Positions 30,500-31,815 of a stretch of DNA of 64,000 nucleotides are shown in pieces. The DNA is from Paludibacteraceae bacterium (lineage in GTDB: Bacteria > Bacteroidota > Bacteroidia > Bacteroidales > Paludibacteraceae). Under the pieces are notes generated by a model. It was not told the origin of the DNA. It worked only from the letters and a program-made list of their open reading frames with translations, and did no database searches. The stretch is taken from positions 190,964 to 254,963 of the forward strand of contig JAFTOD010000002.1 of the NCBI GenBank assembly GCA_017451525.1, given 5' to 3'. The position numbers and the translations under genes were made by a program. Positions within the stretch are counted from its first letter, which is position 1; each line of letters begins with the position of its first letter.

Positions 30500-31815
30500 T
30501 TACAATAGGCGATGAATTGCTGATAGGGCAAGTGGTGGATACCAACTCGGCATGGATGGCAGAGCGACTTAATGAGGCGGGGATTGAACTCTACCAAATC
30601 ACATCTGTGCACGATGACCGAGAACATATACTGAAGGCATTAGACGAAGCCTTCTCGCGTGCAGATATTGTGCTGACTACGGGAGGACTGGGCCCTACGA
30701 AAGATGATATTACCAAGCATGTCATGTGTGAGTATTTTTGCACTACACTGGTGGAAGATTCGCGCGTGCGTGAGCATATACACGAGTTGTATAAGGAGCG
30801 ACCTGATGTGCTCAATCGCTTGACTGCTACCCAATGGCTCGTTCCCGAGAGTGCGAAGATTTTGACCAATAGAGTAGGTAGTGCACCGATTATGGTGTTT
30901 GAGAATGAGGTTAAAGGTGAGAGGTTAAAGGTTAGAGGCGAGGGACAAAATTCAAAATTCCTCATTGCCATGCCTGGTGTTCCTCACGAAATGAAGATTG
31001 CCATGAGGGAGCAGGTGATGCCGTTTTTAGAGTTTAGAGAACGCTCGCAGAGCGAGCTACAGAACGGCGCAAGCGCCTACAGTTTAGAGGCGAGAGGTGA
31101 GATTATTCATCGCACGATGATGTTGTATGGCATAGCGGAATCGACATTGGCACTAAAAATAGAAGAATGGGAGAATGCTCTGCCCCAATCAATGCATTTG
31201 GCATACTTGCCCAAGGATGGCATTATTCGTCTGCGATTGAGTAGTTATGGCGAAGCAACAAAAGAAGAAATAGAGCAGCAATTAGCCAATCTCAAGCCAT
31301 TGATAGCAGGCAATCTGATAGCCACCGAAGATTTGCCTTTAGAAACGATATTGGGCAATCAACTCAAAGCGCGTCATCAGACTATTGCCACAGCAGAGAG
31401 TTGCACAGGTGGCCGTTTGGCAGCCGCACTCAATGCGCAGTCGGGCTCATCGGCATACTATATGGGTTCGGTAGTGGCATACGATAATCGTATCAAGGAG
31501 CAAGTGCTGGGCGTGAAGCATAGTACATTGGAAAAATATGGTGCGGTAAGCGAACAGACTGTGCGTGAGATGGCTGAAGGTGTACGCGCACTAATGAACA
31601 CGGATTATGCAATTGCCACATCAGGTATAGCTGGCCCAACAGGCGGAACACCAGACAAGCCCGTAGGTACAGTATGGATAGCATGGGCTACACCCGATGG
31701 TACAGTGGCAGAGTGTTATCACTTTGGTGTTGCGCGTGAACGCGAACAAATCACCCAGCGTGCAGTCACTGCTGCTTTGGTAGAACTAATCAAATCACTA
31801 AACACTAAACAATAG
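30484..31815 (+). CDS. cinA: CinA-family protein (MoCF-binding domain plus nicotinamide-nucleotide amidase PncC domain) carrying two repeat-derived in-frame inserts
   Basis: [25 protein letters not shown] and [13 protein letters not shown] in the N domain. The C-terminal domain has ATAESCTGG and SGIAGPTGG. It overlaps the preceding gene by 16 nt. Confidence 0.9.
   Translation: [443 protein letters not shown]
30907..30960. repeat. GGTTAAAGG/AATTCAAAATTC word repeat inside cinA
   Basis: GAGGTTAAAGGTGAGAGGTTAAAGGTTAGAGGCGAGGGACAAAATTCAAAATTC encodes [18 protein letters not shown]. Confidence 0.75.
31026..31090 (-). repeat. CACTAAA-family-like element (two hairpin units, reverse orientation) inside the cinA reading frame
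   Basis: The reverse complement reads CCTCTAAACTGTAGGCGCTTGCGCCGTTCTGTAGCTCGCTCTGCGAGCGTTCTCTAAACTCTAAA. It has the same word-GTAG-hairpin-GTTC-word layout as the intergenic copies. Confidence 0.75.

Follow-up and report, generated by a model that had tools for sequence, protein, structure and literature searches.

A probable in-frame copy of a dispersed REP-like word-hairpin repeat in the CinA linker of a Paludibacteraceae bacterium

The signature of the repetitive extragenic palindrome (REP) superfamily is a GTAG tag in front of a GC-rich palindrome, and REPs are thought to be mobilized by Y1 transposases called REP-associated tyrosine transposases (RAYTs) (PMC3733652, PMC2817692, PMC3479197). 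REPs tagged with GTAG or CGTC also occur within genes in several phyla, often as dimers, adding 20 to 30 amino acids (aa) and often affecting repair genes (Di Nocera et al. 2013, PMC3733652), and such intragenic copies have been suggested to sit in flexible linkers (PMC3733652). The survey of GTAG REPs reports them from Proteobacteria, Cyanobacteria, Chloroflexi, and Planctomycetes-Verrucomicrobia-Chlamydiae (PVC) bacteria, with none from Bacteroidetes (PMC3733652). In-frame Rickettsia palindromic elements (RPEs) have been reviewed (PMC10969869), and ERIC, RU-1/2/3, and the Coxiella QMITE are MITEs (miniature transposable elements with inverted repeats) with intragenic in-frame copies (PMC2759123, PMC5896051, PMC10969869). 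We describe here a composite repeat inside the cinA gene of a Paludibacteraceae bacterium (Bacteroidota, Bacteroidales), encoded within a 64,000-nucleotide (nt) stretch of GenBank assembly GCA_017451525.1 (contig JAFTOD010000002.1, positions 190,964 to 254,963) that we call the window. The segment is very probably an in-frame copy of a dispersed, REP-like word-hairpin repeat family, lodged in a tolerant linker of CinA.

The composite, at a position designated site B, runs antisense to cinA (Table 1). Its reverse complement reads CCTCTAAAC-T-GTA-GGCGC-TT-GCGCC-GTTC-T-GTA-GCTCGC-TCT-GCGAGC-GTTC-TCTAAACTCTAAA, that is, two tandem units of GTA, a GC-rich hairpin, and GTTC, with CTCTAAA words on the flanks and a single T between the units that creates the junction GTTC-T-GTAG. 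The unit 1 stem GGCGC/GCGCC recurs in intergenic copies of L004, L009, L018, L028, and L086 (L labels denote related loci or contigs compared with the window), and unit 2 is a predicted stem-loop in both RNA (cinA sense) and DNA, with z-scores of -2.2 and -3.2. The composite codes roughly for F184 to E202, a gain of 17 residues (51 nt) over alleles without the dimer. The degenerate words that follow it are those of word-only alleles in L001 and L003, and an identical 66-nt site B string is present in L002, L006, and L081. The presence of two adjacent units within one open reading frame (ORF) cannot be chance. A first-pass annotation had reported this two-unit element, its likeness to the intergenic elements, and its translation without a stop between the motifs PGVPxEM (PGVPHEM here) and IIHRT; the sequence and position are as quoted there, and the 443-aa ORF is intact.

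The family follows a fixed grammar: 7-nt words (CACTAAA or CTCTAAA), GTA, a perfect GC-rich stem-loop, GTTC, and words again. Five short spacers between genes of the window show this grammar (28611-28630, 29270-29289, 29881-29899, 31812-31833, and 51667-51687). Units consisting of TA, a perfect GC-rich hairpin, and GTTC number 7 in the window, against 0.08 expected (maximum, 2) from 200 simulated first-order Markov sequences matched for dinucleotide frequency, and 22 copies of the word CACTAAAC are present where 2.0 would be expected. Because the perfect-stem requirement made the pairing circular, units were counted a second time by their flanks only. This census yielded 24 distinct inner sequences, 21 of them perfect hairpins and 2 hairpins with a single G.T pair, in the classes 5+3+5, 4+3+4, and 2+3+2 (GCNNNGC mini-hairpins). 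At least eight different stem sequences occur among the units, and the (G/A)TAG and GTTC tags and the words are conserved; with so many stems and the pairing kept, structure rather than sequence is what the copies have in common. Nearly all copies carry GTAG, with a few ATAG or CTAG variants.

Beyond its 7 units per 64 kb in the window, about 25 of the related loci sampled contain the family, mostly in intergenic DNA, and most copies fill very short spacers between co-directional genes. L003, L004, and L009 keep the element of the mntP-DUF3109 spacer in the corresponding place. The stop codons of def (29228-29230) and of the gene at 51040-51663 (51661-51663) both fall within the first word of an element. 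An element in sense orientation has stops in all three frames, which makes it a universal terminator for ORFs whose 3' ends it adjoins. Rfam 15 gave no match in 28500-32000 at an E value of ≤1 and no gathering-level match on any element of the window. A transcription terminator reading of the intergenic copies was considered and set aside; the hairpins are followed by GTTC and A/C-rich words and there is no T-run.

The host gene is of the three-domain CinA type. Pfam places MoCF_biosynth at residues 4 to 183 (E value, 9.7e-36), CinA_KH at 209 to 269 (1.9e-07), and CinA at 286 to 438 (7.4e-58), in that order, and the fold resembles those of solved CinA structures. The 100%-identity protein cluster (P0001) is found on 8 contigs, and the ratio of nonsynonymous to synonymous substitution rates (dN/dS) between the window gene and eight relatives is 0.10 to 0.23. 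The ORF is therefore intact and under purifying selection, which answers the concern, raised with the first-pass annotation, that the gene might be disrupted. The same data bear on whether the segment could be an assembly chimera formed at a repeat, or the gene a dead one. All of the data are metagenome assemblies, and short repeats can mislead assemblers, but the identical protein recurs on those 8 contigs, the dimer allele is present in independent ENA, NCBI, JGI, and Logan assemblies, and a 65-nt repeat is shorter than a sequencing read; we regard an artifact or pseudogene as hardly credible.

An AlphaFold model made with 20 close homologues was unusable (mean predicted local distance difference test score [pLDDT], 50) and was replaced by one from a 134-sequence alignment including outgroup proteins (mean pLDDT, 74.9). 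By Foldseek, this model matches Thermus thermophilus CinA (4uux, E value of 4.6e-31, and 4ct8); the PDB sequence matches are 6mr3 and 4ct8. The pLDDT falls below 50 only at residues 143 to 145 and 149 to 155, in a turn between strands 136-141 and 158-163 (site A, described below), and at residues 191 to 203 (site B), between helix 167-192 and strand 207-215, the first of the KH domain. In the alignment with the solved CinA of Streptococcus mutans (6MR3), site B likewise corresponds to a gap. The low pLDDT, the Pfam boundary at 183/209, and the 6MR3 gap together place the site B insert in the linker that joins the N-terminal and KH domains, where a surface loop had been anticipated. This linker is flexible and surface exposed, and the low model confidence of the insert is consistent with a disordered segment.

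Close relatives differ in what they carry at this linker. A protein search recovered 120 clusters 85 to 100% identical to the window CinA, and those with a named source are Paludibacteraceae metagenome-assembled genomes. The clusters at 85 to 97% identity range from 412 to 466 aa, and in an alignment of 20 relatives all of the length variation lies at site A (after ..PIMVFE), at site B, or at the C terminus. At site B, L007 (PYIGSKGSGEIIHRT) and L001 (15 residues, already heptamer words) have short alleles, L003 has a word-only allele with 21 extra nucleotides, the window, L002, L006, and L008 have the two-hairpin dimer, and L005 has a dimer with other stems and extra words. Among 99 close clusters classified, 35 have a dimer, 45 are word-only, and 12 are short, so that 64/99 lack the dimer. 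The states of site A (none, short, medium, or long) pair with those of site B in almost every combination, the word tracts at both sites shift by exact 21-nt (three-word) steps between alleles, and the DNA flanking alleles without the dimer differs from that of the window by 4 to 8%. Divergence along cinA is mosaic, with several 66-nt bins showing zero differences. A recent sweep or strong constraint on the element was considered and dropped, as the element is no more conserved than the rest of cinA.

Scanning the species genomes of the Genome Taxonomy Database (GTDB) yielded 80 loci, without exception from uncultured Bacteroidales/Paludibacteraceae of herbivore and human guts. In species whose CinA is ≤72% identical to that of the window, the site A turn is uniformly short (VFxK-GxK), and in most of them site B is short; species at 73 to 100% identity have hypervariable low-complexity inserts at both sites. 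Loops are uniformly short in 109 of 109 matched outgroup CinA clusters, and about 40 species loci also have short loops, in agreement with the statement in the first-pass annotation that typical CinA proteins have a short linker. With up to 20 kb sampled per species, the repeat family was not found in outgroup loci and occurred only in the in-group. Short outgroup loops and a family confined to the in-group indicate that the short state is ancestral and the inserted repeat DNA derived. If instead the long linker were ancestral, the short alleles would be deletions. Within the species-level cluster, the allele states are mosaic and single events are not polarizable, which leaves some room for that view, but it is largely refuted by the outgroup comparison; moreover, solved CinA structures have no such segment, and its DNA copies the intergenic family found, in the sampled loci, only in the in-group. 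We give an ancestral long linker almost no credence.

Translated copies of the same dimer are present in other ORFs of related contigs, as the first-pass annotation had proposed to check. In relatives, the two-unit element lies antisense in recQ, between helicase motifs II (DEAH) and III (TATA), reading ..GLEDASLQNGSTAAYSLKT..; at this loop an outgroup RecQ has only ..EIRSLLPGVPVLALTATA, and the insert of L016 consists of words only. Metagenome contigs scanned for the exact pattern of the dimer junction, CTACAGAACG..CCTACAGTTTA, gave seven loci, all within ORFs and all in the same frame: two at cinA site B, three at the recQ motif II-III loop, one at a second recQ site preceding ..IIVATNAFGMGID, and one in a CPBP (CAAX-type) protease gene. 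The in-ORF dimers at cinA site B, at both recQ sites, and in the CPBP gene always read LQNGxxAYSL. Nine distinct in-ORF composites share 83% column identity, which identifies them as copies of one composite subfamily with the form GTTTAGAG-(G/A)AC-hairpin A-TACA-GAAC-hairpin B-TACA-GTTTA(G/A)AG. In the recQ gene of L081 (4992-6779, minus strand), a shorter odd segment with SNSEAS (residues ..WKRYSSPISNSEASNIRIIVAT..) stands at the second recQ site, where L094 has an antisense dimer; it may be the remnant of a sense-orientation GTAGCGAAGC mini-hairpin.

The recurrence of one peptide invites the explanation that the insert has a selected function, with mRNA hairpins that slow the ribosome or mark a processing site at the domain boundary, or with LQNGxxAYSL acting as a functional module. 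In its favor are the exact placement at the inter-domain linker, the same frame and peptide in cinA, recQ, and the CPBP gene, pairing that persists in 90% of cells of the in-ORF copies, and one compensatory change from A-U to G-C. However, each canonical word's TAG closes one of the three frames, and in composites of the long type, those at cinA site B and at the second recQ site, the flanking words are so spaced that only one frame stays open; the shared frame is largely forced, which for the long type accounts for the shared peptide without selection. The dimer is missing from nearly two-thirds of the close clusters, whose flanking DNA is about 92 to 96% identical to that of the window; the element is as variable as the gene around it; and the insert has the low model confidence expected of disorder. 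Covariation gave no evidence of selection on the in-ORF hairpins, and neither did conservation set against the gene background. We consider a selected function highly improbable, and the extra peptide is probably not a functional addition but a neutral passenger.

The site B composite is one of three element-derived segments in cinA, so that the single in-frame element named in the first-pass annotation holds for site B but is not a full account of the gene. At site A, five in-frame words encode 14 residues in a beta-hairpin turn just before PGVP; in relatives, this segment is absent (VFEQTGKLL), short, 21 nt shorter or longer, or long with a hairpin. The third segment, at the 3' end, is in sense orientation: its words code for the final residues ..KSLNTKQ, its (G/A)TAG tag supplies the cinA stop codon (31813-31815), and it occupies the entire spacer as far as the following ATG (31844). 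Where relatives have a 1-nt indel in these words, CinA ends in ..IKITKH* instead. The site A words, of the form RAGGYKA, occur nowhere else in the 64-kb window, and site A there consists of words only. Together with the exact 21-nt steps at both sites, this would suit a local origin of the inserts through slippage or duplication of heptamer words plus chance palindromes, without copying of a dispersed element. Slippage, however, covers the copy number of words and not the arrival of hairpin units, and these units bear the full family signature, share a stem with intergenic copies, and belong to a composite that is 83% identical in three unrelated genes. A local origin of the site B composite is accordingly very unlikely.

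Both loops have been occupied by different repeats in different lineages. In L032, site A holds GTCTAAA-type words, CAGC-GAA-GCTG, and inverse words, and this same composite fills its mntP-DUF3109 spacer, which in the window holds a CACTAAA element. The cinA genes of L031 (10001-11488) and L032 (10001-11404) encode 495 and 467 aa, having grown by translated arrays of heptamer words plus the inverse arrays (KVESQ.. / HSTFDIQ x n) around the CAGC-GAA-GCTG mini-hairpin; these inserts form a long palindrome with inverted word arms, a shape nearer to an RPE or MITE. L004 and L011 have another repeat family, ATGGAC-GGCG-TTC-CGCC-TATTGGGTA.., at cinA site B and at the 3' end (about 3520-3600 and 4360-4450 in L004), so that the linker reads ..FANGRRSAYWVMDALRAKGE.. 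and CinA ends in ..RLMGNGRP*, and their locus also keeps intergenic CACTAAA-family copies. At site B, two outgroup species (L045 and L046) carry another hairpin pair, also present elsewhere in the locus. In L028, site A (about 830-900) has a sense-orientation copy of two units that is read in-frame (EKICSPSGRSLSSSEAFT), which shows that both orientations are tolerated when the TAG and TAA triplets fall out of frame. Sharing of 11-mers between cinA inserts and their own 20-kb flanks is clearly enriched in about a dozen species only, by a comparison of low power.

The presence of each species' own repeat variants in its CinA loops marks these loops as recurrent targets or replacement sites; independent repeated insertion and gene conversion by the dominant family both fit this turnover. 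A bolder proposal is that the same landing sites are rewritten throughout the clade by whichever word-hairpin-word repeat is current in each species, implying an active, site-preferring copying or gene-conversion system. The rewritten sites would be the short intergenic spacers, at least two CinA surface loops, two RecQ loops, and positions in other proteins, and the agent might be a domesticated HUH/RAYT-like enzyme that acts on heptamer-word arrays and homogenizes copies genome-wide. We think this rather unlikely. If true, it would mean continuous peptide-length variation in housekeeping enzymes, with protein loops as legitimate targets, a behavior undescribed in Bacteroidota.

For the window, the reading that we prefer, an in-frame copy of a dispersed family, would involve the following steps. 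A composite of word, unit, T, unit, and word would have been copied antisense into the linker between the MoCF/COG1058 and KH domains, perhaps through single-strand DNA processing by a REP-associated Y1/HUH transposase, as the GTAG-tagged hairpin points to, or else through recombination or template switching between copies. The heptamer words would then grow and shrink by slippage in 21-nt steps. In a gene under purifying selection, such an insert is tolerated because its length keeps the frame, the frame used is stop-free, and the linker is flexible. The TAG and TAA triplets of the words indeed lie out of frame in the cinA insert, and at most two canonical words stand in a row.

Several observations weigh against this account. 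No clean target-site duplication or empty/filled-site junction could be defined among the alleles, and because the flanking words differ between alleles, replacement or gene conversion is inseparable from simple insertion. No transposase of any kind was identified in the sampled loci, and a regular-expression search for the Y1/RAYT motif (HUH ... Y..NP), itself a weak test, found none in the window and 88 loci (about 1.5 Mb). The dimers in cinA and at 29218-29303 are head-to-tail, unlike the head-to-head or tail-to-tail inverted pairs of BIMEs and REPINs, which are the basis of RAYT models. Covariation among the nine in-ORF dimers is weak, the one compensatory pair lying at an orthologous position, and the stems have decayed in the in-ORF copies of L092 and L093, which also counts against a selected function. 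Finally, all of the sequences are metagenome assemblies, and the CinA protein with the insert is a predicted one.

The remaining features of the window include further word repeats. The in-frame GAGCAAG tract (Table 1) belongs to a different word family and shows the same in-frame behavior; the host gene at 19996-21285 we take, judging by its sequence alone, to be DUF2851-like, and relatives of its product (70 to 75% identity) are 5 to 12 residues shorter exactly at the tract. A second word-hairpin-word family, at 24244-24303 and 26876-26931 (plus strand), has GAAACTTT-type words with a period of 8 to 9 and hairpins GCGAC-TAA-GTCGC or GCGCC-AAC-GGCGC directly upstream of start codons. The ATG listed at 26875 probably lies inside such an element, and the real start is more likely near 26933 (MKK..). 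Intergenic word arrays comprise ATTCTTA x5 at 21396-21430, with an inverse copy 40 kb away at 61183-61218, and TACGTAGGATA x4, TTAGTGATTAG x3.8, and TTGCTCAATTC x3 at 21451-21494, 52296-52337, and 33628-33660, respectively; several such arrays make this a genome rich in multiple word families. The 595-aa ORF at 22138-23925 contains about 8 tandem 69-nt (23-aa) repeats (22360-23073, plus strand) with a 207-nt super-period and probably encodes a leucine-rich-repeat type surface protein. The DUF805b RNA motif of Rfam (RF02914) matches at 34031-34065 on the plus strand (42 bits, against a gathering threshold of 35.6; E value, 1.6e-08), just upstream of the ORF at 34087-34989. The motif TTG..(~19 nt)..TAcCTTTGCA stands upstream of genes, for example at 3924-3957, 7250-7283, 21815-21848, 33650-33683, 45640-45673, and 60133-60165; it matches the Bacteroidota -33/-7 promoter consensus (TAnnTTTG), in agreement with the taxonomic assignment.

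Table 1. Coordinates of cinA, its element-derived segments, and other repeat features in the window
Feature	Position	Strand	Description	Basis or context
cinA coding sequence	30484..31815	+	443 aa; MoCF_biosynth (COG1058-type), CinA_KH, CinA/PncC	ORF and Pfam
Site B composite	31026..31090	-	Word(s)-unit-unit-word(s), antisense to cinA	Sequence and DNA-level allele comparison
Hairpin unit 1	31062..31080	-	GTA-GGCGC-TT-GCGCC-GTTC	
Hairpin unit 2	31039..31060	-	GTA-GCTCGC-TCT-GCGAGC-GTTC	
Words after composite	31090..31103	+	Degenerate stop-free heptamers GCGAGAG GTGAGAT, encoding ARGE	
Site A words	30904..30945	+	In-frame GAGGTTA AAGGTGA GAGGTTA AAGGTTA GAGGCGA	Tandem Repeats Finder, period 7, 4.6 copies
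3'-end element	31789..31843	+	Words, ATA-GCCC-GCA-GGGC-GTTC, word; sense to cinA	
ruvX-def intergenic member	28600..28681	+	GTA-GCGGC-TCT-GCCGC-GTTC, then 7.4 CACTAAA words up to ATG	
def-mntP intergenic member	29218..29303	+	Two units, mini-hairpin GC-ACA-GC and GCGCC-CCA-GGCGC, words between	
mntP-DUF3109 gene intergenic member	29871..29914	+	GTA-GCGCT-TT-AGCGC-GTTC	
Intergenic member	51644..51703	+	GTA-GCCCGC-TT-GCGGGC-GTTC	
Word-only array	219..248	-	Four heptamer words (GTTTAGT on plus strand)	Between two plus-strand genes
Heptamer tract	20539..20590	-	GAGCAAG, about 7 copies, translated in-frame as EPRARNKEQGARSQEQG	Gene 19996-21285

These results extend in-frame colonization by small palindromic repeats to free-living gut Bacteroidota; the best-known cases until now were Rickettsia RPEs and a few REP-rich Proteobacteria and Verrucomicrobia, including Opitutus. 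The architecture is unusual in that it joins arrays of heptamer words to direct dimers of GTAG ... GTTC hairpins. Dozens of close metagenome lineages with empty, word-only, one-family, and other-family alleles at the CinA and recQ loops form a natural experiment in which the entry, expansion, decay, and replacement of repeats inside proteins can be followed, and which reveals protein positions that tolerate 7 to 60 extra residues. Such inserts inflate length variation, split 90%-identity clusters, and may mislead annotation, and the repeats also supply stop codons and C termini. If a dedicated copying enzyme exists, it would be the first REP/RAYT-like system characterized in Bacteroidales.

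Among described systems, the MITEs resemble the window family as small nonautonomous repeats able to fuse in-frame with a host ORF. They differ from it in that the window family has no terminal inverted repeats or target-site duplication, is flanked by direct words, and is much shorter; the direct flank word GTTTAGAG is present at every insertion site and is thus part of the element rather than a target-site duplication. Cyanobacterial short tandemly repeated repetitive (STRR) sequences are tandem arrays of 7-nt words in intergenic DNA, with word families that differ by lineage, as in the window. To our knowledge, STRR arrays have not been described flanking GTAG hairpins or translated within conserved genes, and their phylum and words differ from those reported here.

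The likeness to Rickettsia RPEs lies in in-frame copies within unrelated housekeeping genes, a recurring peptide, fold-tolerant positions, and presence/absence differences among close relatives. In contrast to the RPE-1 type, a single long palindrome of about 100 to 150 bp, the element here is a composite of about 65 nt with two 12- to 15-nt palindromes and words. There is no sequence relationship, and the host is a free-living gut anaerobe (Paludibacteraceae, Bacteroidales), not an obligate intracellular alphaproteobacterium. The first-pass annotation had taken in-frame palindromes to be known from Rickettsia, which is correct, but they are not peculiar to that genus, given the intragenic REPs of several phyla (PMC3733652).

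Like GTAG REPs (PMC3733652; Nunvar et al. 2010, PMC2817692), the window family consists of short GC-rich stem-loops with a 5' GTAG, in copies dispersed over the window and the sampled loci. As in those REPs, the sampled copies stand mostly between co-directional genes, near or overlapping the upstream stop codon, their stems vary with pairing kept and occasional G.T pairs, and a minority lie in-frame in genes, often as dimers, the repair-gene example here being recQ. Unlike GTAG REPs, the window family comes with no RAYT found by the motif search and has a fixed 3' GTTC tag and tandem 7-nt word arrays; its units are also shorter, with palindromes of 11 to 15 nt, at the short end of the 20- to 40-nt REP range. 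The final G of GTAG is paired, as the first base of the stem, which differs from the E. coli REP. The kind of event is thus a known one, represented by Rickettsia RPEs and intragenic REPs, and what is new is the architecture of the element, the phylum, and the repeated occupation of the same loops across a clade.

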